DNA of 63,864 nt, taken from Rhynchobatus australiae. Its lineage: Eukaryota. The notes beneath the pieces were generated by a model. That model did no database searches. It was not told the DNA's origin and saw only the letters and a program-made list of their open reading frames with translations. A program made the position numbers and the translations under genes. The stretch is from assembly GCA_034780895.1 (NCBI GenBank), contig JAUZTB010000065.1:27636144-27700007 (forward strand), written 5' to 3'. Positions 20,331 to 51,637 of this stretch are shown here, piece after piece; position 1 is the first letter of the stretch, and every line of letters begins with the position of its first letter.

Positions 20331-20514
20331 ACAGTGTCACCAAAATTGTATCCCATCTGCTACTTCTTTGCCCGCTCTCCTGACTTTCCAAATCTTTCTG
20401 CAGACTCCCTGCTTACACAACACCACCTGGGCCTCCACCTATCTTTGTATCATCACCAAACATCGCCACAATGCCATCAGTTCCTTCATCCAGTTCATTC
20501 ACATAGAAAGTGAA

Positions 20515-21769: not shown

Positions 21770-21789
21770 CTCCGTGCCAATAAGAGCAT
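21770..21789 (-). CDS. Micro-exon (candidate exon 8) of the unknown minus-strand gene
   Basis: Acceptor cattttacttcatag, donor GAG|gtctga. 20 nt, phase 2-1, (R)CSYWHG; phase fits both neighbours. Confidence 0.4.
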
Positions 21790-21880
21790 CTATGAAGTAA
21801 AATGCCAAACAATATTCAGCTAAATATGTCACATCACTAAGTAAAACAGAGAAAGCAGAGTGAGGATTGGACAAAGTGAC

Positions 21881-22018
21881 CTGTTAGAACTTCTTTTTCC
21901 CTTTGTCTTCGCATATACAGTAACTGTACTGCAGTCTTCCAGATTTCTAATTTGTATTTTCAGTACATTCAATTTCCAAAAATCCCACACCAGATCTCGG
22001 TCATAAAACCACACACAT
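21881..22018 (-). CDS. Exon 7 of the unknown minus-strand gene (GG acceptor)
   Basis: Phase 2-2 open frame (R)CVWFYDRDLVWDFWKLNVLKIQIRNLEDCSTVTVYAKTKGKRSSN. The polypyrimidine tract ends in GG instead of AG; donor CAG|gtcact. Confidence 0.6.
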
Positions 22019-22204
22019 CCAAAAAAAAAGAACAAAATTTACATCTCATTTTATCATCACCTCTGAACTACTTTCTTTTGAATGTTAATCACTTTGCCTA
22101 GAAGCATGTTGGAATAGAAGCTCCGTGGGATTACTCACTTCCTCAAATCCCTCTGCAACCAAAGTGTGTATTTCAGCACGCCAGCCATGGGGAAAACAAA
22201 TTAC

Positions 22205-22279
22205 CTGTCTGATGAATCAAATGTAATGTTTCCAGGTTCCAAAGCAGCAACGCACCTTTTTGCTTTTGCATGTAGTTTG
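22205..22279 (-). CDS. Exon 6 of the unknown minus-strand gene
   Basis: Acceptor ctttctcaccctaactctag, donor CAG|gtaatt. 75 nt, phase 2-2, KLHAKAKRCVAALEPGNITFDSSD. Confidence 0.72.
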
Positions 22280-24689
22280 CTAGAGTTAGGGTGAGAAAGA
22301 GTTGAGACAAGGATAACTAAATTGGATAGCTCTGGAAATCAGGCACTGGGATCAGGATATGCCCAATTTACCCAGTGCAAGAGCAACGCAGAAGGTTCAT
22401 ATTGTACCTCATTCTTATAATTTAGCAGTCAGGCAGTGTAATCCAAACTGTTGCTGACCTTTGTGCATCATCAGAAGGCCCCGCTTTGTGAGCGATTAAA
22501 CTTCTTCAAGTCAGTCACAATGACTAACCATGTACCTGTACCTATAAAAAGGACAAATTCAGTAGTGCAAATTACTTTACAGGACTATGAAGCCTATTGG
22601 AAGCTACACTGAATGTGGGTATCTGGATTTCCCAGCACAGCTCTGCAGCCTTTGTTGGTAAAGTGAAGAAGAGAAGGGGGGGAATAAAAAACTTTTGAAA
22701 CAAATGCTAAAGCTGGACTGGAGAAGACCATAGACAAATAAAGTCAATGACATCAAATACTATCTCCCAGCAGCAGTGCCCCACAGTCACACATTGCAAT
22801 CCACGTCCATCACTAACAATCTATCAATCAAAAGTTGGACTGAATATTCACATGCCCCTCATAAACTTAGCATTCCTCTATGCTTCATATTCACATTTCA
22901 GAATTTGTTCACAATGCCAGTTCTTTAACTGCGATAAGCACTTCATTCACGCTGCAGGGCACAGACTGATAACTTTTCCCCTCCCTTGCACAATAAGATG
23001 CTCGGTGCATTAATTAACCAGAAAGAAGGTTTTGCCTACAATGGCAAATAGCAGAGTGGAATCCACTGCAACCTTGCACAGGGTTTTACTCAAAGCCTGA
23101 AATATTCTTTCTATGATATAAGTCATGGTCCACACCATTTCAACACTTGTGAGCATTAAGTATCTGATGGCTAAGGTATCCATTTCCATTCTAGCACATC
23201 AGAAGCCACCAACATCAGGGAGCTGTAGTGGAACCACAGATTTCTGTGGTGCAAGCTTCAACTGTTATTATGCAAGGTCAACTTATAGCCTTGCAGATTG
23301 CTGAGATCGTGGCTCTAGCTACCAGTGTTCAAGGAGCTTTGAAGGTATTGGCATTCTAGCAATCTGTCCTTTAAGACTACCCCAGAAGGCTCCTCCCCAT
23401 GAGCATGGCAGGGGCTATCAGGAGCACAACCTGATGTTCTCTCTCAGGATAGTAACATCTGTGTTTCCAAACCTAGCGTTGCATCAACATCCTTGCTATT
23501 GTCTGCCAACCACCCCAGACTAGTGTACCTCATGGACAAATGGTGTATTCCAATACTCAAGCAACAGCTCAGATGACAATATAACAAACATTCACGGTAC
23601 TGAATGAACCCACAACGTGTAACGCACTATCTTTAACAAGAGCTTTCACAGCCAGTATCACACACCACTGGAATCTAATCCATCTGCCCAGCAGAGCTTT
23701 AGTTCTTCTGCTAGGACAGTAAGAGCCATTGTAGTTTCACTGGGGTTATGTTACCATAGACAAAACCCCTTATCTCCTGGAAATGAATTGAAGGGGGCTT
23801 TTTATAAACAAGACTCTATCCACCAGTGGTGTTAGATTATTGGAGAACAGTCCACACCCAGCAGCGTAGAGTACAGAGCCAGTCTGTTCTCAGATAACAA
23901 TTTTACAAACCACATCCTAAAATATAATGACCAGCTTTTTGGCCTCTACTTGGAGCCTGGCAATACTTCCAGCCTTCCCAGACTATTTTATTCTTTGCTC
24001 TCATGTGGTCTTGGATTTTGTTAATAACCACCAATCATTGAAGTAATAAAGGGTTTTCTCTCTTCCTTGACCACACTTGGATAAAGAGTAAAATGATCTG
24101 GCAGAATCCTATCTGCTTTTCATAGTATTTTGACTAACAAACATCTTTTTATAAAGACCCACAATTTTACTGAGCAAGGTGAAATTGTAAACTTTCAAAT
24201 TCAAATTAAAGTTATGGGCGGCAAACTAGTGCCACAAGGAGAACTGCTGCCTNNNNNNNNNNNNNNNNNNNNNNNNNNNNNNNNNNNNNNNNNNNNNNNN
24301 NNNNNNNNNNNNNNNNNNNNNNNNNNNNNNNNNNNNNNNNNNNNNNNNNNNNTCATTGAAAGCTTTCTTCGTGGCAAGCCAGCAGGTCACCAGCTGTCCT
24401 GCAGCCACTGGGGAACATTGTGCAAGAGGACTAGACAGCCAAAACCACATAAAAGGCAGGCCCTCAGGGAATACACTAGTGTAATTAGTTGAAACTTACG
24501 TGTTATTTGTCATGGTCCAATGTATAAATGTGGATAGAAATGTTGATCCAGTGTTGGCTTTTATTCTGGCATTGACACCAGGTGGACACTCTAATGAGCA
24601 GTAAAGGCAAAAAGGTAAGATGCAAACTATCGCAGAATGGGGAATGGGATGCATTTACTAAAATCACAAACAAACAAGTTGATGCCATA

Positions 24690-25630
24690 CTCCCTAGCCA
24701 GAAAGGAGCTCTTGACCTTGTCTTTCTCTTCCTTTTCTTCCTCCTCCACCACTTCTACCTCCTGTCCCATCAAATCCAGTCCCACATAGCATCCACAATA
24801 TGCCTGGGCTGGATCACACATTGGACATCTATAAGTTTGGACACTCACTCTGCTGTGTAATGCAAGTGCCCGCAGAACAGCTCAGGTACAGGAGGCATTA
24901 GTTATAAATGTAAATGGTCTGCTCAGGTTGTAGGTAGCACTATAGCTTTTGTTTAGACAGTTTCTGCTCTTCTGTATGGATTCTGGAGTCAAGAACCAGA
25001 TGACAAAAGGGTAACATTGCATTGTGGCTCATAGATGTAAGGCACTGTGAATAAGATATCAGAATTGTGACTGTTGTCATGTAAATGACTGTCATGACAG
25101 ATGGGATATGGTCACAGAACAGCTGCTCTTTCAGTGAATAAGATCTCAGGATTCAAATTTGGTGGGTTTACCTCAATAAAAAATGGCATCTACACCATCA
25201 GGAAACCCACAATCATTGAGAATGCACACAATCTTTTCAACAGAGAAGAAGATAGGGAGAAAAAGATAAAGTCATTCCTCTGGGATAAAGTGCTGCAAAC
25301 TGTAGTAAATGTGCCTTGAGTCAGCCTGGAAATATCTGGAAGCATAGAAACTGATAACCTTCCTAATCTCCACTGCCATTCGCAATGTTCTTCAGTTGTG
25401 CTTGTGTCTGCAGTGTAGATCCTTTTACTTCTGCTGAATGCAATGTTCTCTGTATATGTTGAACATCCAGCAATCACTGTTCAATTTAACAGCATGAATT
25501 CATATCAGAATTGAAAACACAACCTGTCTACTTTGTAAACTTCTAATATGCACCACCGGTCTTCCCAGAATGAGGGATAGGTAGCACAAACCATACTGCA
25601 AATTATGCAAGCACATCATACAGTAAGTCT
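24690..25630 (-). mobile_element. Degraded PIF/Harbinger transposase (HARBI1-like)
   Basis: Broken peptides MAVEIRKVISFYASRYFQA, QRNDFIFFSL...AFSMIVGFLMV, LHYTAE*VSKLI and an acidic EEEEKEEK tail, in the order expected for Harbinger DDE transposases. Confidence 0.72.
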
Positions 25631-26070
25631 GAAATGAAATGGCTCTCAATGCCCAAAAAATGGAGAGAAAATTCATCNNNNNNNNNNNNNNNNNNNNNNN
25701 NNNNNNNNNNNNNNNNNNNNNNNNNNNNNNNNNNNNNNNNNNNNNNNNNNNNNNNNNNNNNNNNNNNNNNNNNNNNNTCACCAATATATTTTCATGATTC
25801 TTGTTTTAGTTATTAGAAGTCTAAAAATACATTCTCAGCAACTTCTCTTTATCACCATTATAATTACATTCTTCACTCACATGTTAGCCTCACACCTCAT
25901 TATTAACTTGCCATTTTGTCAAAATAATATCTATGTCACATTTGTACCTAACAAGCACAAATTTCAACACAAATTAGATGAACTAATAAAGTCAAGGCTG
26001 CAGTCTCATTAGTTCCACTGAGTTGCTGACTAATATATAGATTGAAGGTAAATAAAATTACCATACTTAC

Positions 26071-26153
26071 AGGAACTCTCCATCTGTACAATAGTTTTTC
26101 CTCATTTTAGATATATCCAACTTCAGAGAGAACTTTTCATCAGAGGACTCTCC
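26071..26153 (-). CDS. Exon 5 of the unknown minus-strand gene
   Basis: Acceptor ccttagtttcctag, donor CCT|gtaagt. 83 nt; only phase 0-2 is open, GESSDEKFSLKLDISKMRKNYCTDGEF. Confidence 0.75.
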
Positions 26154-27514
26154 CTAGGAAACTAAGGCACTGAGTGAAACAGCTTTCCCAGAGAAATACA
26201 ACAAAGTTCTAAGTTACATTTCCCTGGCTGCGATTATTTATTGAGCAAGGTTGTTCACAAAGCATGCTGGAATTTACTGTTTGTAAACCCTTTCCTTTTC
26301 CTTGTCGTTATCCACCTATGTAAAATTGCTTGTGACTCAGGAAAGAGCCTATCACATTTAGGCTGTTTCCCAGTTCTTTTCTGGAATCACAATAACAACC
26401 ACCTTTCACGAAGAATTCAAGTCTTTGTGAAACTGTGAATGGATGCAAAATGCCACAAGATTAATACAATTGCCACTATATGATCCTATCTATTGCAAAG
26501 GGATATGATCCTATCTATCTATTACACCATCCTATTAGTCAGTGTAAAATATTAAGTTTACTATATTTTTAAGAATCACAGTTAAGACCAAACAAACAAA
26601 ATATCAAGAAACTGGCAGTAAAAACATACAAGTCAACAGAGATTCAAACCAAACCAAGCATTTTCTTCAGAACATATTTCTTAAGCAATCTGACAATTTG
26701 TAAAAGCTTTGGATACCAATTTATAGACCTCAGTGGGTGATATTTTTTATTTGAGTGATGCAGTGGTCCTGCAGTGCTAGAGTTCAACTGTCAACTCCCA
26801 AATCACTGAAAATTAATGAAACAGAAAACACACCTAATTCAACGGGCCTCAAAGATAAAATGGAAGGCACAGTGTCAAAGAATTTTTCTTCTGTAGGTCA
26901 AACAATTACATGCTGGAAGAATGAAATATTTTTGGTTGTTCTTTGGCTTTGTTTATCTTTGATTCTTGGTCAACGTATCAAATAACTCCATTCTCAGAAG
27001 AATGCTCAAGTATTTAACAGTTTTCAACAAGGTTAAATATTTCCAAAAGGATTCCTGATGCAATTAACTAGCAATGTAGCAGTGATCATTGGCAATGTGG
27101 GCGATTAATAGTTGCCTCCTCACAAAACTGTCAAACAGATTGCCTTGCTTTTCTATGAAAAGGCAAAATGATTATTTTAATGAACCACAATGAATTTTAA
27201 AACTAACTTTTATCTTTTAAAAAAATATGTATTTCCTTTGTGAGGCATGGAACTCTGCTTTCTGTTACATAGACATTATTCAAAGCAGTTATATTAATTT
27301 GATTTTGGCCCTGCTTACAAAAAAAATGAAATTGTATATGATGTAGTTTTAACAGGAATCCAAGCATAAATTATTATCCTCAAAATGATATTACATTAGC
27401 ATTTTATATGCATGGCAATTGAAACATGATGCTTCAAAATCAGTATTACTTAAATGGAAATGTTTTCTGATGAATTCTGCAAAAAAACAGCCCTAACAAT
27501 GCCCCACTTTCTAG

Positions 27515-27730
27515 CATCATAGAGTCACACAGCAATTCACCTCACCAAATCTGCACCAACCATTTAACCGATTGACTTTAGGGGTGTGGGAGAAAGCCAG
27601 AGCACCAGAGAAAACCCACACGGTTCGCAAAAAGAACATGTAAACTCCACAGAGACAGCATCCGAGGTCAAGAATGAGCCTGGGTCACAGAGCTATGAGA
27701 CAGCAGCTCTACTAGCTGCACCACTGTACT
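27515..27730 (-). mobile_element. HE1-type V-SINE with CR1-like tail (old)
   Basis: tRNA-like head, V-domain-like gtgtgggttttctctggtgctctggctttctcccaca, tail gctgtgtgactctatgat. Confidence 0.75.
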
Positions 27731-27754
27731 GTTAATATTACTCTGATAAGATTT

Positions 27755-28040
27755 CTTTATTAGTTACGTGCACATCAAAACACCCAGTGAAATACATCTT
27801 TTTGCGTAGTGTTCTGGGGGAAACCCACGAGTTGTCACCACGCTTCCGGTGCCAACATAGCATGCCAACAACTTCCTAACCTGTACGTTTTTGGAATGTG
27901 GGAGGAAACTGGAGCACCCGGAGGAAACCCACGCAGACACGGGGAGAATGTACAAACTCCTTACAGACAGTGGCCAGATTTGAACCCAGGTCACTGGTGC
28001 TGTAAAGCGTTACGCCAACCACTGCACTACCATGCCTGCC
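27755..28040 (-). mobile_element. V-SINE, full length, Rex1-like tail
   Basis: tRNA-derived head with B box ggttcaaatc; V domain tctgcgtgggtttcctccgggtgctccagtttcctcccaca; same family as 56603 and 62818. Confidence 0.88.
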
Positions 28041-29079
28041 CCTCAGTGGAATATGGATGAGATTGCATATCATGATGGTCTAACATTTCCTGATGGGAGA
28101 GGTTTCAAAAAGAAGCAAAGATGAAGGCTCCAGAATTCAAAGAGATTCATGGGAGCTGAATTGATTTCCATTGAAAAAATAAAGACTGGAAATTTGGATG
28201 AAATGAGTGTTTTAAAAATCTGTGTACATTTGGGATGTATCGCCTGTACATGTGTTTAATACTGTGTCATTTAATTCTTTTAAAAAGGAAATTGAGAAAA
28301 TATTTTATTAAAGATAGAACTATAATAAGCAAGAGTATAAATGTAAAAGATACTCTCAGGAACACAATGATGTAAAATTCCTCTGTGAATATAGCTAGTC
28401 AGAGTTGAAAAATGTAGCTGGTACCGTTAAATTGACATCCTGAAGATTTGGTTGATTACTTTAGGAGAGTGAAAAAGAAAGTTCACACAGTTCTATGTTC
28501 AGAAACTTTTCCCTCAGGAGAAGTGATTAAGTGTTCCTTGAAATTTTGATCCTGGACTGAGCCACAGTGTGAAAGAGTCATTTGTGGCATTGCTGCAGTT
28601 ATACCTTGGGCTGTCATAAATTTTTCACTTAATCATTGTTTGTCCTCATTCAGGACACTAAGCAACAGTTTAAAATAACTCAGCAAAAAGGTAATAGATG
28701 GTCAATTTCCAATTGTCTCACTCAAAGTAAACAAAATCCACAATGGATTGAGTTATTGGAGATGATATGGTTTGATGCAATTGCTTTTAGTTTTATTCAG
28801 TAGCTGAATGTCCTACTGGACATCTAAAATACCGGATCCTATTTGATTGTGGTATAAAATTTGATTGTGTGCAAAATGTTTCAGGAAATTCTATCTCAGT
28901 CCTCCATGCTTGTAACATTCACAAGAGGCTGCTGGCTTGTGCAAAAACATCAATCGACATGCAACACAAGACCAATATTGTTTTTGCGATAGTGTTCTTG
29001 CAAATTTGCTGCATGTGAACAGCATGGACCTTGACTACAGCAGCAGACCTTAACCAGAGGGCAAAGCTTTGCTCCTATG

Positions 29080-29540
29080 TTACTTAAAAGACCCAAGCCT
29101 ACTTGGCTTGCCACCAGGGAGTCCAACAATGAAGATTCTAGGCTTGCGAACTATGCTGTTAACCTGTTCATTTATTACCCGACCACAACAGCATTGAAAA
29201 CTTCCATTGAAAAAAGAGACATGTGCCCATCCCATCAATCTACTTATCACCATCCTGCTTCTCTACCCCTTCCGTGATATTTCCCCCCCAATCTGAAACT
29301 TGGCAGGATCTCTCCTCAGTCAACACCAGATCATTTTGCTCTCAATCTTCTCATCCCTTACTCCTACCTTGATTTCTCATCTCCAGTCTTTCTCCACATC
29401 CCTCCCCCATGCTTTTGCAGTCTCCACCAGTCACCTTCTCCCTGATTTTTTGGACTTTTGGTTTCCACTAATCATCACCCCTCCTCCATCATCTTTCTCA
29501 GCACTCGATCTCCACGCACAATTAAACTTTTTCCTGTCCA
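29080..29540 (+). mobile_element. Very old L2/CR1-group endonuclease-region fragment
   Basis: Pyrimidine-rich degraded sequence with a TWL-like motif; recognition is weak. Confidence 0.3.
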
Positions 29541-30029
29541 TTGTGGTATGATATTGAGGTCAATCATTTGTTTTTTGCATGAATGTGCTTGCAAGGCCTG
29601 GCATTATTGATTTAACACGCACAACTCTTTTAACGCTCTGCATGTTGCAATCTCAGTGTTTCCTGGCTTTGAACAGAAGTGTTCCGTTGTACTGGTTCTC
29701 CATGTGGTGCTGTTTCTACGTATGCTTTAATGCTTTGATGAATTTCTGAGCTAAAATATGTCTGAACAAGTTAACAGTGGCAACTGCAGATCATGTAGAA
29801 ACCCTTATTACTCAAGTAGTGGTACTTCACAATACTTCACGGATTTCTTTGTATCTGCTTCAAGTAATATTATAGAGCTAATTAAAAATCTAAAACACTT
29901 TAAAGCCTCACAATGCTCCCAAAACCAAAATGTTATCATTTTTAACCAATGTTTTTCAGCTAAATTGATACACTTCAAGCTCATGATTGGCTCTCTCTGA
30001 TATCTGGTCCAAAACATACCACTAAAAGA

Positions 30030-30315
30030 GACATCACATCATTATGTGTGGGATCTTGCTGTGTACCATTTACTTCTATATTCCCTATGTTGACTACGCA
30101 TCAAAAAAGAAATATTTCATTGGCTGTCAAGTGCTATGGGATTTTGTTGAGTACTGACTACAAACTCCAATGAACTGCATGCAGACATCGAGTCTACTAA
30201 CTATTCCATGCTTCAAGCAGTGGAATAGTTTGTCGTATCATTATGAATTTCCTAATTCTGCTCTCCCCACATAAAAAAATTAAGTGCAAGGTACTACATA
30301 AATGCTAGTCTTTTC
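30030..30315 (+). mobile_element. SacSINE1/DeuSINE 3' part
   Basis: tgtgggatcttgctgtg...ttcattggctgtcaagtgctatggga...tacataaatgctagtctttt; homologous to 5438-5600 in reverse. Confidence 0.65.
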
Positions 30316-30497
30316 TTCACTGCTAAAATAAGACACAATGAAGCCCTTCTACTGATATTTTATCTATTGTGGAGTAGTAGCATTGGTATGGCAATGCAAA
30401 ATGTTTTATCCTAGATTTCCTGTACCTAAAAGGCCAGAAACACATATACTCATGTTGAATATATTCTAAACAAGCCTAACCTGCCAACCTTTCCTTA

Positions 30498-30592
30498 CTG
30501 TGTCCAGTTCTGGTGGCCTCATTATAGGAAGGATGTGGAAGCATTGGAAAGGGTGCAGAGGAGATTTACCAGGATGCTGCCTGGTTTAGAGA
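30498..30592 (+). mobile_element. CR1 ORF2 fragment running into a gap
   Basis: VQFWWPHYRKDVEALERVQRRFTRMLPGLE. Confidence 0.92.
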
Positions 30593-31799
30593 NNNNNNNN
30601 NNNNNNNNNNNNNNNNNNNNNNNNNNNNNNNNNNNNNNNNNNNNNNNNNNNNNNNNNNNNNNNNNNNNNNNNNNNNNNNNNNNNNNNNNNNNNNNNNNNN
30701 NNNNNNNNNNNNNNNNNNNNNNNNNNNNNNNNNNNNNNNNNNNNNNNNNNNNNNNNNNNNNNNNNNNNNNNNNNNNNNNNNNNNNNNNNNNNNNNNNNNN
30801 NNNNNNNNNNNNNNNNNNNNNNNNNNNNNNNNNNNNNNNNNNNNNNNNNNNNNNNNNNNNNNNNNNNNNNNNNNNNNNNNNNNNNNNNNNNNNNNNNNNN
30901 NNNNNNNNNNNNNNNNNNNNNNNNNNNNNNNNNNNNNNNNNNNNNNNNNNNNNNNNNNNNNNNNNNNNNNNNNNNNNNNNNNNNNNNNNNNNNNNNNNNN
31001 NNNNNNNNNNNNNNNNNNNNNNNNNNNNNNNNNNNNNNNNNNNNNNNNNNNNNNNNNNNNNNNNNNNNNNNNNNNNNNNNNNNNNNNNNNNNNNNNNNNN
31101 NNNNNNNNNNNNNNNNNNNNNNNNNNNNNNNNCACAGGCTTGCTTTTTGAAAATTTTGGTACAGGCCCATGAAAAGTTAAGGAATGTGCTTGAGGAATTT
31201 TACTCCATCTCAGCGCTGCTCTGAAACAGTTATCTTAATGTTTCAACAATGTTCTTTCTTTCTCCTCCCCTATATCAAGCAGCTGCACTGTTACAATAGT
31301 AATCATAATTAGTTAGTAGAATTCACTGACCTGTAATTCAATAATTGTTGGAGTTATGCAGCACACACATTTTCAGAGACCTTTAGGAAAACAGCTGCTG
31401 GTCCTGTGTGCAGAGTACATAGTGTGCTATGGAAAATCTTGGCCTGCATTGTAGGTTTTAAGCACTAGCTTCGAAGCATGTTTAATGATATTTTCCTGTT
31501 TGCTCTGTTTATTTTGGCAAAAAGTAGCTAAGTTCTACAAGATTGATCTTTGAAGCAGATCTCTGTAAAGTTATATTTATGGTGCTGCAGCCGACCAGTT
31601 TTCAGGATTCTACCCAAATTACAGCAGAGTTAAAATGTGTCTGCTGTGTCAAAAATAGTAAGTTTCATCTCATTTGGGTTGAGAGTCTAACCCCGGATGC
31701 CTGGATGTCACCTATAGTTTGCAGGTCTCTTGTACTCAATTTCTGATCTCTCCTGCCCATATTGAATAAATCCTAGAACAATCTGTTACTCTAAATCCT

Positions 31800-31920
31800 G
31801 AACATCAAAGGAATCAAAGGATATGGAGATTAGGGAAGATGATCAGCCCTCATCCTTGTGAATGACTGAGCAGGTTCAAGGGGCCATATTTCCTACTCCA
31901 GCTCCTTTTCCTTATGTTTT
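31800..31920 (+). mobile_element. CR1 3' end
   Basis: ggaatcaaaggatatggag...gatcagcc...cctactccagctccttttccttatgt tail. Confidence 0.7.
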
Positions 31921-32569
31921 TAAGATTGCCTGCCTCTGTTGGATGAGTCCCAAGAATATCTGCCACTCTAAATTCCCCTGCTTTCATAGGACTTGTTCAA
32001 CTAACTGTCAGATTCTTACACTGAAGAGGGAGCAACAATTCTGCCTACTGTGCCCCAAGAAACACAAATTTCTATATTTCAATTTGGACCTGTCAGACAC
32101 ACGAGTAGAATTATTCTTTAATGTGAATTTCTCATTACCCAGATGCCCAGAAATTACTTGGCTGACTGAATTTTAGTTACAACTGGATTATTCTTTGAAT
32201 GTGCTGGCACAGGCTTCATTGTTTGAACGGCCTCCTGGGGTGCACTGTGATTATTTGCATTTTGCCATTTCCAGAAAGAGGTACCCAAAAATATTCCTCC
32301 TGTAAGATGATTTACTCTTTTGTTTTGTTTCCTAAAAATAAACATCTTACTAATGTGTCTTTCTTGTTGCAGTAAAAACAAATACAGAGAATTTACAGTC
32401 GGGTTGAGAGCTCTTTATGTTCTTATGAGTTCTCAGCAGTTTTAAGAGTCCAGAAAGGTTCCTCAGAAATATGACCAGTATGTGACTTTATTTGTCACGA
32501 TAGTATCATTACAATAACACAATGAGATTATAAATGAGACCAGAAAATTATAGAAATAGCTGTACATCT

Positions 32570-32945
32570 GTAGTCAGGCCAATGCTAATAATCTAAAGAC
32601 ACGAGTTCAAATCCCACCTTGGGAGTCTGTGAATTTGAATACAATTTTGTTTATATCTGGAAAATTAACAAGCTGTCATCACGTCAATATGCCATCTGTT
32701 TCACCAATGTCCTTCAGGGAAAGAAATATATTATCCTTACCTATCTACTCTGTCAAACACAGTTGTAACTCCCCAGGCAAACCACTCAGTTGGAACAGAA
32801 GAATAAAACTGTAAGGATTGTTCAGCTGCAACCAGAGAATTAAAAAACAAAGATTCAGGGCGAACAAAGTCAACTTGGTCAAGTCCTTGCTAACATCTGG
32901 GGACAGGTGCCAAAGGAGGGAGAGCTCTTTCACAGGCTGTGGTAC
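32570..32945 (+). mobile_element. 5' fragment of a CR1-group LINE with tRNA-like head
   Basis: B-box-like gagttcaaatcccacc; body homologous to 40300-40680 (minus) and 44820-45075 (minus). Confidence 0.6.
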
Positions 32946-35900: not shown

Positions 35901-36109
35901 AGCCTTTTGTTGCAAAGATTTTTAGATCATTTCAAGGTGCAGATTCTACCAGGGTAGCTCCTTGGCTGGTAATAAGAAAGTTCAGAGCTGCAAAGGTCAA
36001 CAACTTCTGCATCTTAGCAGGGTGCTATTGCATTGAGAGGGTTGTCCTGTCACCAGTGGCTAAAGAAGTAGATCTACATTCTTTGGCACTACGAAGAATA
36101 TGGCTGAGT

Positions 36110-36370
36110 TTTTAAAAACAAATATAAGATCCTGAGGGAACATGACTGGGTCCATGCTGAGATGTTTCCATGAGTGGGAAAACCTCAAAAGAGGGGACAC
36201 GGGCAGGAGGGTGATCATTTAAAACTGAGGTGCATAGGAACTTCTAATGGTGAATCTCTGAAAAAGAAGGGGAGGTGAAGGTCAGAGAAGAGCAACCACA
36301 ATTATATTGAATGGTGTGGGAAGCTTGAGGAGCGTAGTGGCCTACTGTTGCTATTTTCATATGTTCTTTG
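36110..36370 (+). mobile_element. CR1 3' end
   Basis: YKILREHDWVHAEMFP-like coding remnant and ggcctactgttgctattttcatatgttc tail. Confidence 0.7.
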
Positions 36371-36578
36371 CCAGGGCACAGTCTTCTAATGTTGCCATGT
36401 ATGCACAACTGGTCTATGGATGCTCATGGTCCTGGTAACAGGAACTTCAGCTGAACATGGGAGATTACCAGAACTGATNNNNNNNNNNNNNNNNNNNNNN
36501 NNNNNNNNNNNNNNNNNNNNNNNNNNNNNNNNNNNNNNNNNNNNNNNNNNNNNNNNNNNNNNNNNNNNNNNNNNNNNN

Positions 36579-40680: not shown

Positions 40681-40844
40681 AATGGATAGTTTCAGCAATG
40701 GTAGCACAAAGCTACTGGATTATCATGAAAACCCAACTCTTAATCCTCACACATTTAACATTAGCAATCCCAGCTCATATTTTTCAAAGAACACCAGCTA
40801 TTTAATTCACCCAAATACTTTGCAATATACTCCTTAACACACTC

Positions 40845-40861
40845 CTCTCTCTCTCTCTCTC
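40845..40861. repeat. (CT)n microsatellite
   Basis: Short perfect CT run. Confidence 0.8.
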
Positions 40862-41869
40862 ACAGGACAAGGTGGCACACAATCATAAGCAACAACAGCA
40901 GATTGCAAGGTCATTGTGCCTGCATTGGCTCAGTACTGTAAAGTGAGTTTTTTTAATCCCTTGTAATCATTGTAGATGACCAACAGAAACCATTGTCAAT
41001 TAGCCATTTTCTCATATTCTCTCATATTCTCATGCTCATCCCACAATCTGCAAGATACAGATACTCTGAGCATCCACTTCTTAATTTACCCTTCCCTCTG
41101 CATACTTCCCTTTTCTCCTTTCTGATGTCAAGAAATTTCCACCTGATTGAGAGCTGCTAGTAGAAATCCCATATATTGGGAAGGAAGAAGACACCCCATT
41201 ATCATTTGATTTAATTTTTGCATTCACGAGCTCAGATACTGACATTAGGTGTGATCTTTTACATTGATGTGAACAGGCAGAATGTCATCCAAAAGATGGT
41301 GGGGTAGAAGTTTTAAACAACTACCCAGAAATTGGATTGTGTAACACTGTATTTCCTGCTTTCTTGATTAATCATAACCCAGGTATTTTTGATTACTGTA
41401 AAATTACTGATAGCCCTTAACATGGTTAAGGGAAACATGGTAAAGGAAAGAGTTTTATTTACTAATTTGATACTTTCAATGTAAGAACAACTATCAAAGG
41501 GAAGAATGTTACTGCTGAACATTAGAACATTGTTATACAACTCTTTCACTCAATNNNNNNNNNNNNNNNNNNNNNNNNNNGACAAAACGTTCTTTTATCT
41601 GCCTCCATGATCTATCTTAATCATAAACAATTACACAATAGTTTCTACAGCACCGGTGTGAAGTTCTTCATTTTCCACAGTAATGATTCTTATGTCTTTC
41701 TAAATGAGATCATAGAATTGTGCTATGGACTGAAGGAAACTAGCAACTGAATTGAAATGAGGCCAATTCAATTCAAGTAGCATTGTCATAGTCAGTAGAG
41801 AGTGAAAACCTCATTCTGCGTGGGATAGAACTGAAATGTCTCAGAGGCACAAATGATTGTATTACTCAC

Positions 41870-41926
41870 TCTCCATCCAAACCATTGGAGTTCCAGATTT
41901 AATAAGTGAAAATCGGTAAAATGAAC
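41870..41926 (-). CDS. Exon 4 of the unknown minus-strand gene
   Basis: Acceptor aatctttttcag, donor AGA|gtgagt. 57 nt, phase 0-0, VHFTDFHLLNLELQWFGWR. Confidence 0.75.
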
Positions 41927-42349
41927 CTGAAAAAGATTTGTGATCACTGACGTTGTCCCCCAATTCGGTCCTGAAACTGTCATTATTTGGAAGATCACAA
42001 AGAGAAGTTTAGAGAGTGAAAATGGATAATACTAGAAAGATGCACTGGGTTCACCATTATCTATTCTGATAGTTATAATCTAGTCCTAGCCATCTTCAGC
42101 TGCTTATTCTATGACTTTCCTTCCAAAATAAGGTCAGGAGTGAGCATGTTTTCTGAACTCTCTGCCAGCAGTGCCTCTCCACCAGCATTCTGTGCCAATT
42201 CAATCTGTTGCAGGCTGCACATGAAAAGTGTTGGCAATCAGCCAGTACTGACCATGATAGCCAAGATCTCCATGAGTCCTAGACTTACAAGTGTCAAGCA
42301 TCAGTTTAAGCTAGCTAGCACTGATTGAAAGATACCAGTTTGAGACAGG

Positions 42350-42590
42350 AACTGAAAATAAAACAGACTGCAGATTTTGGAATCCAGAACAAAAAACAGA
42401 ACACTGGAAGAACTCAATGGGTCAAGCAGCATCTGTGGAGGCAAAAGGTGCAAGCCGACATTTTGGGTCCTTGCATCAGGACTCATTACCTAGTTCATGA
42501 CACAGAGTCGCTCTGAAAAATCAACTTAGACCTTTTGTCTCCACAGATGCTGCTTGACCTGTTACATTCTTGCGTTCTGTTTTTGTTGAG
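42350..42590. mobile_element. Inverted pair of Penelope-like pLTR fragments
   Basis: Minus copy 42350-42483 with decayed hammerhead (ctgatgcaaggacccaaaatgtc); plus copy 42510-42590. Confidence 0.75.
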
Positions 42591-42649
42591 GTACCTGTTT
42601 GAAGACACACTTTGTAAATTCTGTAATATCCTTTAATCAAGCAAGCAGA

Positions 42650-44436
42650 GCCCAAGGGTTCATGGGCGAGTAAATTTCTGCTCATTTCCCTCAGTTGCAA
42701 GTGTATCCTTCCATTGGTAGGCAGGCCAGACCTTAGCACAATGTTCCACCGTTAGTCTCACCAGGATGATATATAACTGCAGTATGACATCTCCAATCTC
42801 GTGCTCAAATCTTCTTGCAATAGTAGCCACAATAGTGATTGTTTTCCTAATTGTTTGCTGCACTTTCGTATTAACCTTCAGTGATTCTAGGACAAGGACA
42901 CCCAGTTCCCTTTGAACTTCAACACCTGTTAATCTCTCACTATTTAAAAAAAACACTTTTTGTTTCTTTTACAAAGGCACAAACTTACATTTTTCTGCAT
43001 GATGTTCTATCTGCCATGAACTTGCCGATTCACCTAGCCTGTCTATATCTCCTTGAAGCCATTTTGCCTCCCCCTTGCAGCCCACACTGCCACCAGTGAC
43101 CTAGCCATCAGCAGACTTTGTTATATTATGTAATCCTTCCATCCAGTCTGATTCCTGGGATCACAGGACTGATGTATGAAGAGAGATAGGAATGCTATTT
43201 TTGATATTCACTAGAGGTTAGAAAAATGACAGGGAACCTCATTAAACTTTATAAAATCCTAAATGGACTTAGCAGACTAGATGCAGGAAGGATGTTCTTG
43301 ATGGTGGAGAAGCCTAGCACTAGGGGTCATTGTCTAAGATTATGGGCTAAGCCATTCAAGACTGTGGTGAGAAGAAACAAGCCTCCCAACCTGAAAATGA
43401 CCTAATTCCTAAGTTCTGTTTTCTGTCCATTAATGAATCCTCAATCTATGCCAATATATTATCCTCAATACTGTGTGCTCCAATTTTGTTTAGTAACTTC
43501 ATTTGCAGGAACTAATCAAAGGTCTTTTGTAGGTCTAAATACATGACATTAATTATTTTACCATTATCCATTCTACTAGTTATAGTCACAAACAATTCCA
43601 TTGGATTTGCCATTTCCCTTTCATAAATTCATGTAGCTTTTGCACTTTCTTAGTATTATATTGCAATTCACTTACTTAATAATAGATTCCAGCATTTTAC
43701 CTACTATTGATGTTAGACTATCTGGTTTACTGTTCCTTGCTTTCTTTCACCTTCCTTTCTTAAATAATGAGGTTCCATTTGCCACCTTGCAATGTGTGCA
43801 TCTGTCTTCACAGAAGAAGGGAAGAAAACCTCCTGAAAATAGCAAAAGACTACAGGCCCTCAGTAATGAGGAACTGAAAGAAATTAATGTTGGTAAAAAC
43901 CTGGTACTTTCAAAAGACCTTTGATAAATTGCTGCATGTGAGATTATGATTAAGTTCTCTGCCACTTCTTTATTCCCCACAATGATTTCTCCTGTCTCAA
44001 TCTGTAAAGGATCCACATTAACCTTAGCTAATCTTTTCCCTTTCATATATATATAGAAGCTTTTACAATCAGCTTTTTATGTTCTCATTCGTCCTCTCTT
44101 GAATTCTACTTTCCCTTTTGTTATCTGTGCCTTTATCCTCATTTACTGAATGCTGAAATGTTTCCAGTCCTCAGGTTTACTGTCTTGTTTTGGTGTTGTT
44201 ATAAGCCTTTTCCTTTAATCTAATATTAACTTTTCTTAGATTGACCACTTCTTTTGATTTTTGTTTTGCTTTAGAGTACACATTACCTATAAACTATCCA
44301 TTCATTTTTCAAACATTACTGTCAGATGTCTTATTGCAGTTTCCCAATCTACCATGATCAAATTACACCTCAGGCCTTCTAAGTTTGCTTTATTCAGATT
44401 TAATATGCTAGTTTCAGATTAAATTAAATCTCTTTC
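42650..44436 (-). mobile_element. CR1 ORF2 relic with internal plus-strand segments
   Basis: Minus-strand GVEVQRELGVLV...VILQLYIILVR, KVANGTSLFKKG and KVNVDPLQIETGEII. Plus-strand CR1 pieces at 43140-43380 and 43797-43920. Confidence 0.85.
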
Positions 44437-44739
44437 NNNNNNNNNNNNNNNNNNNNNNNNNNNNNNNNNNNNNNNNNNNNNNNNNNNNNNNNNNNNNNNN
44501 NNNNNNNNNNNNNNNNNNNNNNNNNNNNNNNNNNNNTCAAGCTTCATATAAACGAAATCACTTGAATATGCATTAGGTTCTATGTGTGTACTGGTATCAC
44601 CCAGCTCTAACTGAATATCTCCCTTGATTTCTCCACTGTCTCCACAATGTCAGACTGCTTGTCCAGTTTCCAGTCCTGACTAAGCAGAAACTTCCTCCTA
44701 ATAAAAAGCAGGAAAAAGCCACCACCAACACAGATTTTT

Positions 44740-45075
44740 TATTTATTCATTGACAAAGCCAGCAGTTATTGCCCATCCCCAACTCTCTTTGTGAAGATAA
44801 TGGTGACAACTAGCAAGGCCACTTTTTAGAGTCAACCACAGGGGTGGGTCTGAAGTCCATGTACAATAGACTTGATAAGGATAACAGATTTCCTCCTTTT
44901 AAGGGCATTAGTGAGCCAGAGAGGTTTTGACAACAATCTGATAATTTTTGTGGTCATCATTATCAATATTGCAGATCATTAAATAAATTTAAATTCCACA
45001 GCTGCCGTGGTCAGGTGTGCTAGTCCAGAAATCTGGATTGCTGGTCAAGTGACTTGATCACTGCATCACCACTAT
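44740..45075 (-). mobile_element. SINE-like element sharing its body with the 5' end of the 38600-40680 LINE
   Basis: Same body as 32570-32790, but ending in gggatgggcaataactgctggctttgtcaatgaataaat. Confidence 0.65.
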
Positions 45076-45099
45076 ACCCTGTTCCTTGTCAACAACTTT

Positions 45100-45785
45100 G
45101 TCTCCTCGGAAATTGCCTGATTCTGAACCAGACTACTCACAAACCCGGTGTTGTGTTTGAGTCTGCCATTGTGTGGACTCCATTGCCAACAGTTTTTGCT
45201 TCCACCATCACTCTTCCTCATTTCATCTGCTTCTAAATACTCTTGCTACCTCAAGACTCTGCTTCCATGCACTCTTGGCTGGTCTATCATCTTCATCCTA
45301 CATAAAACTGAGATCATCCAAAACTCTGCTGTTTGAATTATAACCCATTCCAAAAGTCCTGGTTACTCAATCCTTCTGTGTTCAACAACCTGAGCCGAGT
45401 CCTACTCCTCAGGTTTATCATTGTCATGGCCTTATACACTGCCACCCAGCACCCCCCCCCGCCCCACTGCCCCATCTCTATAACCTACAACCCTGCAACT
45501 TGCCATGGTCTTTGCACCTCTCTAAATGCAACCTCTTGACTCACAGTATCATTTGTGTCCATGTTTCTAGCTGCCAAGACCATAAGCTTTGTACTTACCT
45601 CCTCAAAATCACTGCCTCTCTAACACTTTCCCCTCCTTTAAGGCTCTGCTCAAAGGCAACAGCTGGAACAAACCTTTTGCCTATCTGTCCTATTATATAT
45701 ATGATAGGTCAAACTTTGCTTGATAAAGTTCCTTTGATGTGCCTTGTGATATTTTACCACATCATAGGTTCCAAGTAAAAGCCAG
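45100..45785 (+). mobile_element. L2-type LINE 3' end
   Basis: HKTEIIQNSA (KLELIQNSAA-like) motif, pyrimidine-rich body, L2-like tail followed by (GGT/GAT)n. Confidence 0.65.
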
Positions 45786-46879
45786 TTTTGATGGTAGTGG
45801 TGGTGATGATGATGGTGCTTGGAAAATGAGCCCTACTCAGTATAGTGTCTACTCAGTCATATGCTGAAATTAAGAGTGCTTCAGTTCACATATGGTTGCC
45901 TACTAATTTGGAAATACTTTTCTATCAAAATATCTACTAAGAATTGGTTGGAAAATCAAGCCTTAGACCCAGCTCAACAACCTATTAATCTATGGGGACA
46001 AACTGCTCCCAATAGCTTCACAAGCAGGATTTTTGTGAACACATTTACAATATTGCCACACAAGGTGGTCAGAGGAAATCTCTGCTCCCCTATGGCCCCA
46101 CCCCTCAGTTCACATAACAAATGAAATTTGTGTGAAAATGTGAAATGGGCCAAAATCCATTACTCTGCAATTAAAGCCCAAACTCCTGGCCAAAGAATAA
46201 TTTACCTTAAACAAACAGCAGTTGTTTTGATCACAGAAAGTAACTTTAATTATGTGTACAATTGTCTAAATGTTACACTGTAAAACTGCCATTTTTCAAA
46301 GGTAGGAAGGGGCAGGTTAACAGAAGTAATTTTCACAGTGAGTGTGTTTTGAGCGTTTGCCAGTGAATATTATGAACATTTCCCCAGAGAATGCTTTTCT
46401 CTCCCATAAGAGTTTCCAAGCATATACATTTCTCATCACAAGACTGAAAGATCTGGCATCCACTTTAACATCTGTAACTGTTTTAGAATTGCATACAAAA
46501 TAGTCAGGCAGGAAATAGTTTTGAAATGATATGGCAGGAGAAGCACATTTCAGCACTAAATTGCATAGTTTGCTAAATTACTTCTTATAGCAGAGGCCTG
46601 GTGGTGTGGATATCCACACAAAGGAATCTGATATTGGCACTTGAGCCAACAGCACAGTAAAAGTTTTAACTTTGCATATGTCACATGCTTTTAAACCACT
46701 GCATATCCCAAACATTGAGCATATGGGATAATGACAGAAAAATAAATTAGCAGTGCTTTGTTACTTGCACATCAACATTTACATAGGACTAATCAACCTT
46801 TTCCTTCATGTACTCAAGCATCCAAAATAAGGGTCCTGAAAGGAATACTTGCCTTTATCTAACACTTTCACAACCTCTC

Positions 46880-47050
46880 TCACAACATTTAGGAAGCATC
46901 TAGACAGCCATTTGAATTGCCAAGGCATTAGAAGCTATGGACTTAATGGGGGCAAATAATAGGATAGATGAGTACAATGGTCAGCATGGATGTGGTGGGC
47001 CAAAGAGCCTGTTTCTGTGCTCTAGACTCTGTGATTCTCTATAACTCTAT
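46880..47050 (+). mobile_element. CR1 3' end
   Basis: FRKHLDSHLN and gggccaaagagcctgtttctgtgctctagactctgtgattct tail. Confidence 0.8.
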
Positions 47051-47069
47051 TACTCTGTTCACTCTGATA

Positions 47070-47370
47070 GCCTTGGGCATTTCCTACAACTCTGAGCTAG
47101 ATTTTACCAAGAATGTTCCTTGGTTTGCTTTCTGTCTATCTATCCTCATTAATCTATCAACCAGATGGCTTCTTCAACAGCTTATTACCATAGCAACCCT
47201 ATATTCCATTTGCATTACCCCACATTCTCTGCAACTTAAAACTAACTTGTTCTCTTGTCTTTCCCAGTTCTGATGAGGGATCTTGGACGAAGTACGAACT
47301 CTGTTTCTCTTTCCACGGATGCTGCCTGACGTGATGAGGGTTTCTAACACTTTCTGTTTTTTTATTTCTG
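47070..47370 (+). mobile_element. Penelope-like UTR/pLTR fragment
   Basis: cagttCTGATGAgggatcttggacGAAg...ttccacggatgctgcctgac. Confidence 0.7.
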
Positions 47371-47379
47371 TTCACTTGC

Positions 47380-47650
47380 TTCTTTATAAGGAATGTATTA
47401 TGTTTACTACTGCAGTCAATATATGGGAAATGTGGAAGGAAATTTGTGCACAGCAAGGTCCCACAAAAAAATGCAACGATGTTCCTGTTCTAGTGTTGTT
47501 AATTGAGTGATAAATTTTGGCAGGAAAGTCGGAATAACTTCCACCCCCCAAAATAAAGTTTTCCTTCAAAATAATTACAAGGACTCATTTTTCTTACAAC
47601 TGAGAGATCAAACAGGGCCTTTGTTTGACATCACACATGAAAAACAACAC
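47380..47650 (-). mobile_element. SacSINE1/DeuSINE fragment
   Basis: aatttgtgcacagcaaggtcccacaaa is the reverse complement of the tttgtgggaccttgctgtgcacaaatt motif also seen near 30045. Confidence 0.65.
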
Positions 47651-47749
47651 AGTGTACAATTCTATCAAAGATAAATATAGTAACAGTTACATTTGAGGGT
47701 AATAAATATCTCAAGATGTAATGGACACTTTGGATGTTCAGCCAGGGAG

Positions 47750-47970
47750 TGAGGTGACTGTAGATGGTGGAATCTGGAGCAACAAACAATCTGCTGGAGG
47801 AACTCAAGTGGGTCGAGCAGCATCCGTGGGAGGAAAAGAATTGTCAATGTTTCAGAGGGAAACTCTATGCCCTGATGCAGAGTTTCAATCCAAAACATCA
47901 ACAGTTCCTTTCCTCCCACAGATGCTGCTTAACCCACTGAGTTCTTCCAGCAGATGGTTTGTTGCTTCAG
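47750..47970. mobile_element. Inverted pair of Penelope-like pLTRs
   Basis: aatctgctggaggaactcaagtgggtcgagcagcatccgtgggaggaaa / tttcctcccacagatgctgcttaacccactgagttcttccagcagat. Confidence 0.8.
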
Positions 47971-47989
47971 GAAGTGAGAGATTTGGACT

Positions 47990-48540
47990 GTGATTGAAAC
48001 TTGGTTAAAAAAGTGGGTTTTGAGCAAGTTTTTAAAGAATGAGGGAGCAGTGGATAGGCAACATTGTTTAGAAAGAGGATTTTATTGTCTAGGATCACTG
48101 GCTGTGACAAAATGAAAAATATGTACAAAGTCCAGAATAGGAACAACTGGTATAGTTGCAGAGTTAAATGAGCAAGGCCATGCGACTTCTGAAAAACAAG
48201 GGTTAGGATTTTAAATTGATATTATTAGAGCTCAAAGGATAAGTCAGGAAGGACAGGGGCAATAGCTGAATGGAATACACAGCAATGTTTCATGTTTGGT
48301 GGAGGTTTGTAAGTTAGTGTGGAGAGTGCTAAAGTTCTCAAGTAAGGAACTGCAGAGCTAAGAACAAGAATTTCAAAAAACGAGTTGAAATAGTGCAGTG
48401 AGAGATATAAAGGATTTTTTTTAGAGAAGATATGAGACCACACAGTATATCTGGCTGTGAACCATCCAGTTCAGCCTGAGACAATGGCCCAAAGGGTGCT
48501 GTCGCAGATGTAGAGCACGTAGATAAGAAGTTCAAGCTGG
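47990..48540 (-). mobile_element. L2-type LINE fragment (old)
   Basis: Purine-rich degraded sequence resembling 20000-20330 and the reverse of 45100-45785. Confidence 0.45.
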
Positions 48541-49355
48541 CTCTCAGCTGTGATTTGATACTCTGCTGAATTCAAAGCTCTAAGCTATTTCATTCAACTG
48601 CTGAAACATGTACACTGCTATGGTGTTTTTCTAATACATCTTCGCATTGTAATGACACCTACTTGCTTCTTGCTATCAAGACACTATAGGTTGATGACAT
48701 CTAGTGGCCTTGGAAGAGCATTCACTGTGAGTTAATAAAAGGCAAAAGAGAAAAAAAAGTCTGCTAACCTGGAAGAAAAACAGAAAGAGCTGGAAGGGTC
48801 AGAATTTGCTGTGACCAGGCATTTCCTGTTAGTTGACCTTGATCCCTCACCTCACTCCTGGCTTTAGTCATATCACTCCAGAAATTCAACTAAGTACTTT
48901 TGCTGGACAAGTTAGTGTATGTGACTCAGAGCGCTCATTTTTGGGCATTCTTGGGACAACCATATCCCATTACTTTTCTCCACTTCTTTAGGACCATTCT
49001 CACTAGCTTCATACTAATGCTCTCAATTCCCATAGTCCCCAACCACCCCAATCCCTGACATTCCCAATCAGCCCAGACCCCCAACCCTCTCCTCAACACG
49101 CTGACCTCCCACTATCAGGACTTTATGCGCCCCAATATCCCTGACCCCTTGGTTCAACTGGTCCCAAATCCCTACTCCCTACCACTCTGATCAGCCCAGA
49201 CCTCGGCTCTCAACTCCCCAATCACTCTGACACTGCAAACTCCCTGACCTCATATTCACTCCAAATGCCAATGTCCTAAACTCTCCAAATGATGCCCTGA
49301 TTTTTCCGCTCTATGATGCTGAAATCTCCAATTAGCTACCAGTATCGGCTCTCAC

Positions 49356-49476
49356 CCCCAAATCTCCAGGCTGAGGCACTATGTTTTCTTTCACGTCTTC
49401 CATGGCACGCAAAGCGAAGTACAACCGCAAATGAGCCACATCCAAGGCCCACGTTAAGTTTCCAGCTTCAGAAACA
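49356..49476 (-). CDS. Exon 3 of the unknown minus-strand gene
   Basis: Acceptor attattttgtag, donor GGG|gtgaga. 121 nt, phase 2-0, VSEAGNLTWALDVAHLRLYFALRAMEDVKENIVPQPGDLG; locally CpG-enriched. Confidence 0.78.
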
Positions 49477-50429
49477 CTACAAAATAATCACTGGCATTCC
49501 AGAAAGTTACCCTATGGTGAGCCTTTTTGTACACACATTAATTTCTAAACAATTAAATTTTAAATCTGAACTTTCTGAAAACCACTCAAAGAAATGAGGC
49601 ATTCATTAGTTAATTTTGATGCAAGAAGGTTGATTGACAGTTACAGGCAATTATCATGTTGTCAGAAACGACCCATACAATAATTACTAGCTCTTATTAT
49701 CTGCAACTTGTTTACCAAATGAGTCTAAAGTACCTAACCCACAAATACAGTAACATTTATGACATTCAATGCTTATCAATGCAGACAGCAAGATGTTACT
49801 TTCCTAAGCATAGTGGCAGAGCAGAGCAACTCACACAAAAAATTTTGGAAAATTTACCTTTAACCAAACTGCTATTTCTCACTGGAGGTTGCTGTATATT
49901 TATACATAAATAATGGCAAATGTCATAAGTCTCACTGTTACTTCAACTGTAACTTTGACCAAAGAGTTCAGCCAGGTTAAAGAGAAAATTAATACTTGAG
50001 GTTGAGTCCTTAAATAAAATTAATGTATTAGCTCATCATTTAACAGTTGCAGCTTACACTTCTGTAGTCCTCATTATCTGCAGGGAGATAGCTGAGAGTT
50101 GTGGACAAGATGATAGACAGTAAATCCACAGAGGAGAAAGGGGGCTGGAGCTGCCATGGTTGAAGAGATTTCTTTGAAGTTGCTGATGAAAGCAGAAGGG
50201 ACGGTGACAAGACAAAGGGAGACTGCTCCAGAATGCAGGCATATGATGTCTGAAGCACCTTTATGAAGTACAGTTTATGAGTGCTGGAGAACTGGGGATT
50301 CAGTAATTAGACTACCACAGACACAGAACNNNNNNNNNNNNNNNNNNNNNNNNNNNNNNNNNNNNNNNNNNNNNNNNNNNNNNNNNNNNNNNNNNNNNNN
50401 NNNNNNNNNNNNNNNNNNNNNNNNNNNNN

Positions 50430-50474
50430 TGGCACATAACTTAGAGATCTTTCTATTTGGATGTATTAGCAGGC
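50430..50474 (-). CDS. Exon 2 (5' part, runs into gap) of the unknown minus-strand gene
   Basis: Acceptor tactgtttgtag; phase 1 start matches the upstream exon; (G)LLIHPNRKISKLCA, then Ns. Confidence 0.6.
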
Positions 50475-50569
50475 CTACAAACAGTACATGGTCATTATTC
50501 TTTCCATAGCAAGTCAGGCAGCATCTATATGTGGGGAAAAATGGTGTTAACATTCCAGGCTGAAAAAAA

Positions 50570-50790
50570 ATGGTAAATTGGTTTATTACTGTCATATGTA
50601 CGGAGGTACAGTGAAAAACTTTGTTTTGCATGCCATCCATATGGTTCATTTCATCACATCAGTGCATTGAGGTAGTACAATGGAAAACAATAATAGGATG
50701 CAGACTGTGGTATTACAGTTACAGAGAAAGTGCAGTGCAGGCAGACAAAGAGGTGTGAGGTCATGATGAGGTAGATGGTGAGGTCAATGT
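50570..50790 (-). mobile_element. Rex1/Babar-like 3' UTR
   Basis: Reverse complement of 13120-13340. It sits between Penelope-like pLTR pieces (50500-50565 and 50785-50900). Confidence 0.8.
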
Positions 50791-51510
50791 TTCATCAGAA
50801 CTGGGAAGAGTTAATAATTAGAGAAAACAGATTTTAAGATGCAGAGAGAGAAAGGAGGGAGGACTGCCGTGAACAAAAGGGAACGAAAGTGGTTACCCAG
50901 TCTGCATTTGGTCTCCATATTGTATGTGAGACCAGATTGTGATTTGAGGTTGAGGATGATGATGCATGGCAGAGGTCAGTGGGCCTTGACAAGGGAAGAT
51001 ATGTCAGTATGAGTAACTACAATTCTTATTTCAAGTTTTAACAAACATACAATGAAGCCCCTTAAATATATGTTTAATTTTTATTCTTATCCCTTAAGAA
51101 CTTTCACTTTAAAACATTGTTCTTTCACAACTGGGATTTTGGTTGGAAACCGTTGAAAACCTCAGAGTTGAACACATTTAGTCTAACAATGAAACCAAGT
51201 ATAGTGACTGAAATTTGAGTCATTCACCATGTACATTAGGATTTGCATTTAAAAAAAACAAATTTAAAATAAGGGCTTTAGATTACAGTATTTAATAAAT
51301 TCATGCTTAAACATCTGAACTGTGTTACCCTGACAAAAGGAAACATCTTGAGGAGATGTCTATGAGAAGCTTTTGTTTGCTTTTTCAATCTGTCTTTTGC
51401 TTGTCCCACAGCAGCAGCCGTCCCGTCCAGCCACAAACTGTAGTTTAAAGTTAGCAATACACACAATCAACTAACAGCTTGCGGCAGTAAATAGCATAAA
51501 CATAACTCAC

Positions 51511-51637
51511 CTGTACTGCTAGCCTTGTTAAACTCAGATCCTTGTAGTAAATCGGATTTCTTTTGGCACTTCACGATTTGCCTGTATGTTCCACTGTTGC
51601 TTGAACTCGTCTGTGCCATAACTGGCTCCAAAAACAT
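51511..51637 (-). CDS. First recognisable coding exon of the unknown minus-strand gene
   Basis: Acceptor cttatttcccag, consensus donor CAG|gtgagt. 127 nt; only one frame is open, MFLEPVMAQTSSSNSGTYRQIVKCQKKSDLLQGSEFNKASST. Confidence 0.75.

Follow-up and report, generated by a model that had tools for sequence, protein, structure and literature searches.

Locus and exon chain

Sequence analysis was done of a minus-strand exon chain which lies in a 63,864-nucleotide (nt) stretch of Rhynchobatus australiae DNA (assembly GCA_034780895.1, contig JAUZTB010000065.1, positions 27,636,144 to 27,700,007). The whole stretch is called the window, and all positions are counted from its first letter. It is vertebrate-like, gap-rich DNA with 21 assembly gaps and retroelement remnants. 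An earlier note had proposed eight minus-strand exons (E1 to E8) in compatible phases and a peptide which looks globular and tryptophan-rich, as a candidate for something undescribed. We give about an even chance to another reading, in which E3 to E8 are what is left of a true protein-coding gene in decay, either a pseudogene of young age or a gene under relaxed constraint, whose family is unknown and to which E1 probably belongs as well.

All eight proposed exon stretches are present in the window DNA, and 25 of the 26 short motifs of the proposed peptide were placed on the minus strand where they were expected, the sole unplaced motif being that across the E7/E8 junction. Two public runs cover the locus, both with genomic-looking contigs. 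The first (X1) is nearly identical to the window and may be its source, and the second (X2) comes from a relative that is about 2.4% different. The features are collected in Table 1.

Table 1. Positions of the exons and of the other mapped features in the window
Feature	Position	Strand	Observation
CpG island	63255-63864	n/a	GC 0.63-0.64 and CpG observed/expected 0.80-0.95 at 63401-63800
First coding exon of plus-strand neighbour	63666-63680	plus	MAYSL, then GTGAGA donor at 63680
58-codon open reading frame	63470-63297	minus	Signal-peptide-like hydrophobic start
Donor GAG/GTGAGC	near 63267	minus	In the CpG island
E1	51637-51511	minus	Phase 0 to 1; acceptor precedes its own ATG
Foreign segment	50430-50926	n/a	Seen from X1 and X2 contigs; holds E2 and a high-copy repeat at about 50515-50830
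E2 (as proposed)	50474-50430, to gap	minus	Inside the foreign segment 50430-50926
E3	49476-49356	minus	Phase 2 to 0; weak acceptor (top 18% of AGs); 5 CpG
E4	41926-41870	minus	57 nt; open as 0 to 0 and also as 1 to 1
E5	26153-26071	minus	Phase 0 to 2; single open frame; indel-free in X2
E6	22279-22205	minus	Symmetric 2 to 2, 75 nt; acceptor AG in window, AA in X2
E7	22018-21881	minus	Symmetric 2 to 2, 138 nt; GG acceptor; weak donor
E8 (coding part)	21789-21759	minus	Stop TGA 21761-21759

When spliced together, E3 to E8 are free of stops and give 143 codons counted from an ATG at 49403 in E3, which stands in a strong context. One open frame each is found in E3, E5 and E7, and two each in E4 and E6; the chain contains two phase-0 introns of 7.4 kb and 15.7 kb. 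Reading of the sequence places an in-frame AG 24 nt within E6, and another possible acceptor of this exon at 22331 was rejected as its phase does not fit E5. Read-through of E7 leads to a hydrophobic tail (21880-21832), and an AATAAA is present at 21464, about 295 nt 3′ of the E8 stop. E1 is an internal exon, because its acceptor stands upstream of its ATG, and it may be non-coding.

Exon 2 and the assembly join

The contigs of X1 and X2 run differently across 50430-50926, and this piece therefore belongs elsewhere. In X2, contig 10 joins 50329 to 50927 via just 91 letters, contig 11, which bears 50430-50599, continues past 50430 with 796 letters unlike the window, and contig 15 has 205 letters beyond 50947 that leave the window sequence. 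In X1, 104 letters of contig 6 beyond 50947 are unmatched, and its overlap with contig 7 is only 21 letters. The segment is a foreign piece joined by a 21-nt overlap, an assembly chimera which is no part of the gene. Since E2 (which is without any CpG) belongs to this chimera, the N-terminal join of the proposed peptide lacks support. Without E2, E1 ends in phase 1 and E3 starts in phase 2, so the two are out of frame and a stop is met within E3; an in-frame join needs an extra exon of 3n+1 nt. Such a bridging exon may lie inside the 91 letters of X2. The only candidate visible, a 31-nt exon at 51359, was ruled out with an acceptor score of -4.3.

Two other places of the assembly were seen to differ. 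The X2 contigs skip 799 letters at 23553-24353, the cause being either an indel or another misassembly. They also close the 100-N gap at 25676-25780 with one letter, the gap being overstated.

Splice acceptors and divergence in the relative

No difference was found between X1 and the window over 21543-23351. The GG acceptor reported in the earlier note was confirmed at E7, where it is present in X1 and X2, and a sequencing error is ruled out because X2 carries it too; one T of the pyrimidine run at this acceptor differs in X2. The GG is combined with a U2-like donor (top 0.6%) and a pyrimidine tract in the top 0.3%. At E6, the acceptor AG of the window has become AA in X2 (22280), which is a second acceptor lost in the same part of the chain.

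Coding substitutions were read in E6 to E8 only (78 codons, with 40 of the 41 differences of the X2 contig listed), as those of E1, E3 and E5 are not listed and E4 is uncovered by the contigs. They are four in all, three non-synonymous (22248, 22236 and 21944) and one synonymous (22252), and E6 holds two of the non-synonymous changes and the synonymous one. The neutral expectation for these exons is 4.1 non-synonymous to 1.6 synonymous changes. The observed 3:1 fits omega 1 (likelihood 0.063) and omega 0.5 (0.061) alike, and omega 0.15, with a likelihood of 0.007, is 9 times less likely. Under neutrality, at least one change in the 8 canonical splice letters has a probability of 0.18.

Composition and splice signals of the exons

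The composition was analyzed for the seven exons without E2 (632 nt). They contain 13 CpG, with an observed/expected ratio of 0.52. The ratio is 0.20 for 136 open decoys with splice sites at both ends (P=0.0016) and 0.16 window-wide (empirical P=0.005); the excess also holds against their own flanks (22 CpG in 2100 nt, P=0.018). At least one CpG is found in 6 of the 7 exons and in 40% of the decoys. The purine content of the exons is 0.56 (P=0.011) and their amino-acid composition is shifted to coding (P=0.02). An exonic CpG excess reflects purifying selection according to a passage of PMC7275064. By composition, and by CpG retention foremost, the exons still look real, beyond chance.

Splice-site strength alone is not above chance. 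The window has 149 exon candidates (74 on the plus and 75 on the minus strand), among which E1 ranks 2, with the strongest donor among the candidates listed, E3 ranks 13, E5 23 and E6 24, and E4 falls below the top 45. Tight three-exon clusters like E6 to E8 are present at 4 other places of the window, and 3 of 10 shuffles also produce them. In human introns, decoy exons exceed real ones about tenfold, as stated in a section of PMC3098058.

Some further minus-strand exon candidates were kept out of the chain, with 0 CpG in their 223 nt. The first, at 32825-32741 between E4 and E5, is a strong splice-bounded open candidate, phase 1 to 2 and tryptophan-rich, whose phase is unfit for E4 and E5 and which gave no Pfam or PDB match. 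The others, at 17618-17578 and 17460-17364, are strong candidates that could follow E8 via a weak donor; they gave no matches, and the second has one in-frame TAA.

Family, homology and fold searches

In these searches the chain was represented by single exons or exon mixtures. The largest collection was a word-indexed set of 5.8 billion proteins of 71/80 to 2000 residues, which draws on NCBI, UniRef and Logan among others, whose vertebrate content was without a positive control, and in which a hit needed three shared 5-residue words. In this set E7 gave no candidates, none of 7 was accepted for E3, and none of 33 for a profile of E7 and E3. A simulation suggests that proteins related at about 60-70% identity would in most cases have been picked up and scored there.

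Pfam gave no domain at cutoff for the single exons, and for the longest 290 of the 358 stop-free frames of at least 52 residues it gave retroelement remnants and sub-cutoff noise only. NCBIfam gave none of 6, and the sequence search of PDB with the exons gave no convincing match; the best one, of E1 to a phycobilisome linker (E=0.003), is the sum of three identical 5.3-bit repeats and was discarded. The ESM Atlas with E3 and E7 gave no usable match (recognition 2163 and 1094), which shows neither absence nor novelty. Scans of metagenomes and prokaryotes gave one 13-residue match each over the same residues, neither of them credible, and the metagenome match is off-frame within a bacterial gene. 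Among viral contigs 0 of 144 matched, and the phage collection and Rfam gave none. Literature searches gave nothing on the locus, and without a gene name they cannot test novelty. The statement of the earlier note that the peptide could not be matched to a known family agrees with the searches made.

The cysteine and tryptophan spacing of E5 to E8, judged by eye, was presumed by us to resemble the ricin-B or mannose-receptor cysteine-rich beta-trefoil; this is unsupported, no Pfam or PDB match to the family being found, which with single exons is a weak test. Resemblances to CUB, a CatSper auxiliary subunit, the class I cytokine receptor and SEFIR are likewise unsupported, with no Pfam or PDB match for single exons. 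A single-sequence AlphaFold model of E7 and the tail (predicted local distance difference test 65, predicted template modelling score 0.40) has two helices; it is uninformative and too weak for a fold search. For the question of a signal peptide or a glycosylphosphatidylinositol tail, hydrophobic stretches are present at the ATG at 63470, with no strong in-frame donor to E1, and at 21880-21832, which requires read-through of E7.

Promoter region and other features of the window

The CpG island at the end of the window is likely a bidirectional promoter which stands head-to-head between the plus-strand neighbour and a minus-strand transcription unit. The 58-codon frame in it has no Pfam match and no strong in-frame donor.

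The region 9600-10900 is unrepeated in the window and has long interrupted frames on both strands, many compatible minus-strand splice-like sites and no Pfam match; we take it to be perhaps an old transposon remnant. Remnants of reverse transcriptase and endonuclease of long interspersed nuclear elements, below the Pfam cutoffs, lie at 20416-20753 (minus) and 15249-15428 (plus). The idea that the gap flanks form one Penelope-like remnant found no support within the window. Short coding-looking frames occur within an AT-rich stretch at 18690-18930 (plus), and at 1144-1420 a 138-nt unit is present in two tandem copies, 97% alike, possibly an assembly duplication. Over 10001-63200 the GC skew of the plus strand is mostly negative (9 of 10, 21 of 29 and 7 of 11 kb windows) and it reverses below 10 kb. 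Replication could cause such a skew. Strand asymmetries of fish differ from those of mammals, according to a passage of PMC2927911. For these two reasons the skew was not used as evidence.

Interpretation

The GG at E7 is real and a second acceptor is lost in a close relative, and for this reason an intact undescribed protein is less likely than a gene in decay. The multi-exon minus-strand structure itself is probably real for E3 to E7/E8 and for E1, without the N-terminal join via E2. Under the decay reading, a minus-strand gene would have its transcription start in the CpG island (63.3-63.9 kb), with E1 and the lower exons linked to that start; long past coding selection would have kept the exonic CpGs, and selection may have been released shortly before the two sampled lineages parted. 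As E6 and E7 are symmetric, a failed acceptor of either should lead to in-frame skipping. E7 would then be skipped with a loss of 46 residues, or it would be spliced at the next AG, 23 nt inside, with a frameshift and a stop after 15 codons; in X2, E6 would be skipped too. A full-length product is not expected on either splicing route. The ancestral product may have been a small tryptophan- and cysteine-rich beta-type domain, possibly secreted or membrane-anchored, but this is a weak and doubtful guess from composition and the two hydrophobic stretches.

Several observations weigh against the decay of a once coding gene. The splice and composition scores rest on approximate frequencies and matrices, and the exons had been picked for their coding look, which biases the composition tests, CpG least. 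The CpG signal comes mainly from E1 and E3, with 5 in E4 to E8 alone against 2.7 (P=0.16), the exon flanks likewise exceed the CpG background, and codon-position periodicity was not detected in the exons (P=0.63). The splice sum of E3 to E6 is 20.9, as against 25.5 and 35.6 for compatible four-exon chains on the opposite and the same strand. Only four coding differences can be read. E3 to E8 contain no premature stop or frameshift, and no indel is found in E1, E3 and E5 to E8 of X2, for which P=0.23 under neutrality, E4 being uncovered. The 321 nt of 21725-22045, which span E7 and E8, have a single difference (P=0.004, scan-corrected 0.064), and this low divergence hints at ongoing constraint. 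Lastly, a gene that died recently would be expected to have close orthologues with an annotation, and none turned up in the word-indexed set.

In another reading there never was a protein, the exons being decoys strung together where the DNA is free of constraint, or parts of a divergent non-coding transcript of the bidirectional promoter in which some exons, such as E1, are real. Chains as good or better exist on both strands, the ranks of E3 to E6 among the candidates count for this reading, and the proposed chain could be made only by accepting the GG and included a chimeric exon. The searches gave no homologue and codon periodicity is absent, neutral change and AG loss would be expected of such DNA, and the tenfold excess of decoys points the same way. 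Exons of long non-coding RNA likewise hold high GC and splicing enhancers, according to a passage of PMC4338330. We nevertheless consider this unlikely, as the CpG ratio and the share of exons with CpG exceed those of the decoys, purine and amino-acid composition lean to coding, and the AATAAA follows the E8 stop. An intact lineage-restricted gene, with a GT-GG intron at E7, E6 and E7 as in-frame cassettes and a start at the ATG at 49403 (143 residues) or in an upstream exon, would suit the open frame which survives skipping of E6 or E7, the E7 pyrimidine tract, the in-frame AG inside E6 and the little divergence over E7 and E8, and GT-GG introns are known, for example in BANP (from a passage of PMC4176328). 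It is improbable all the same, since it demands two rare events at adjacent acceptors; the 3:1 substitutions speak against it, and no protein was found for it in the word-indexed collection.

It is quite improbable, too, that the locus belongs to an undescribed lineage-restricted tryptophan- and cysteine-rich family, to which none of the proteins searched comes closer than about 60% identity, and that it is still expressed, by way of a bidirectional promoter, a GT-GG intron and in-frame cassettes, while being lost in sister lineages. Very improbable is an intact part of a named gene beyond the reach of the searches, either because its protein exceeds 2000 residues or because it has diverged too far; further exons would then lie in gaps or outside the window. 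The length range and word rule of the large collection leave room for it, and the 21 gaps and the two long phase-0 introns could conceal exons; on the other side stand the lack of a Pfam domain at cutoff in the exons and the 290 longest frames and of a convincing PDB match, and the broken acceptors would stay unexplained.

If the decaying-gene reading is true, the locus is an unannotated vertebrate gene caught during loss, and the unnamed protein which its intact orthologue would encode elsewhere deserves a search. If the gene is intact instead, an orphan protein is gained, together with a GT-GG intron, which is a rare type. The case of E2 shows that draft short-read assemblies can yield false exons by chimeric joins. 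No principle is overturned by either reading.

Comparison with known systems

Gene-loss screens reportedly describe unitary pseudogenes with splice-site lesions. The present locus works like a young unitary pseudogene: it shares the multi-exon structure at its own locus, the lost canonical splice dinucleotides (GG at E7 in X1 and X2, AA at E6 in X2) and substitutions which may be neutral. Membership of this class is not established, and unlike its members the locus keeps E3 to E8 without a stop or frameshift and no functional orthologue was found that could give the lost gene a name. The GT-GG intron of BANP has a GG which is conserved in most vertebrates and supported by reads, according to a passage of PMC4176328. 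The E7 intron resembles it in the U2-type donor, the strong pyrimidine tract and the GG in the place of AG, but here the GG is seen in two close runs, from DNA alone, and X2 has lost the AG of the adjacent acceptor at E6. Decoy (pseudo) exons, as treated in part of PMC3098058, are approached by the locus in splice scores and open frames, which are similar to those of other window candidates; unlike decoys, its CpG observed/expected ratio is 2.5 times that of the decoys in the window.

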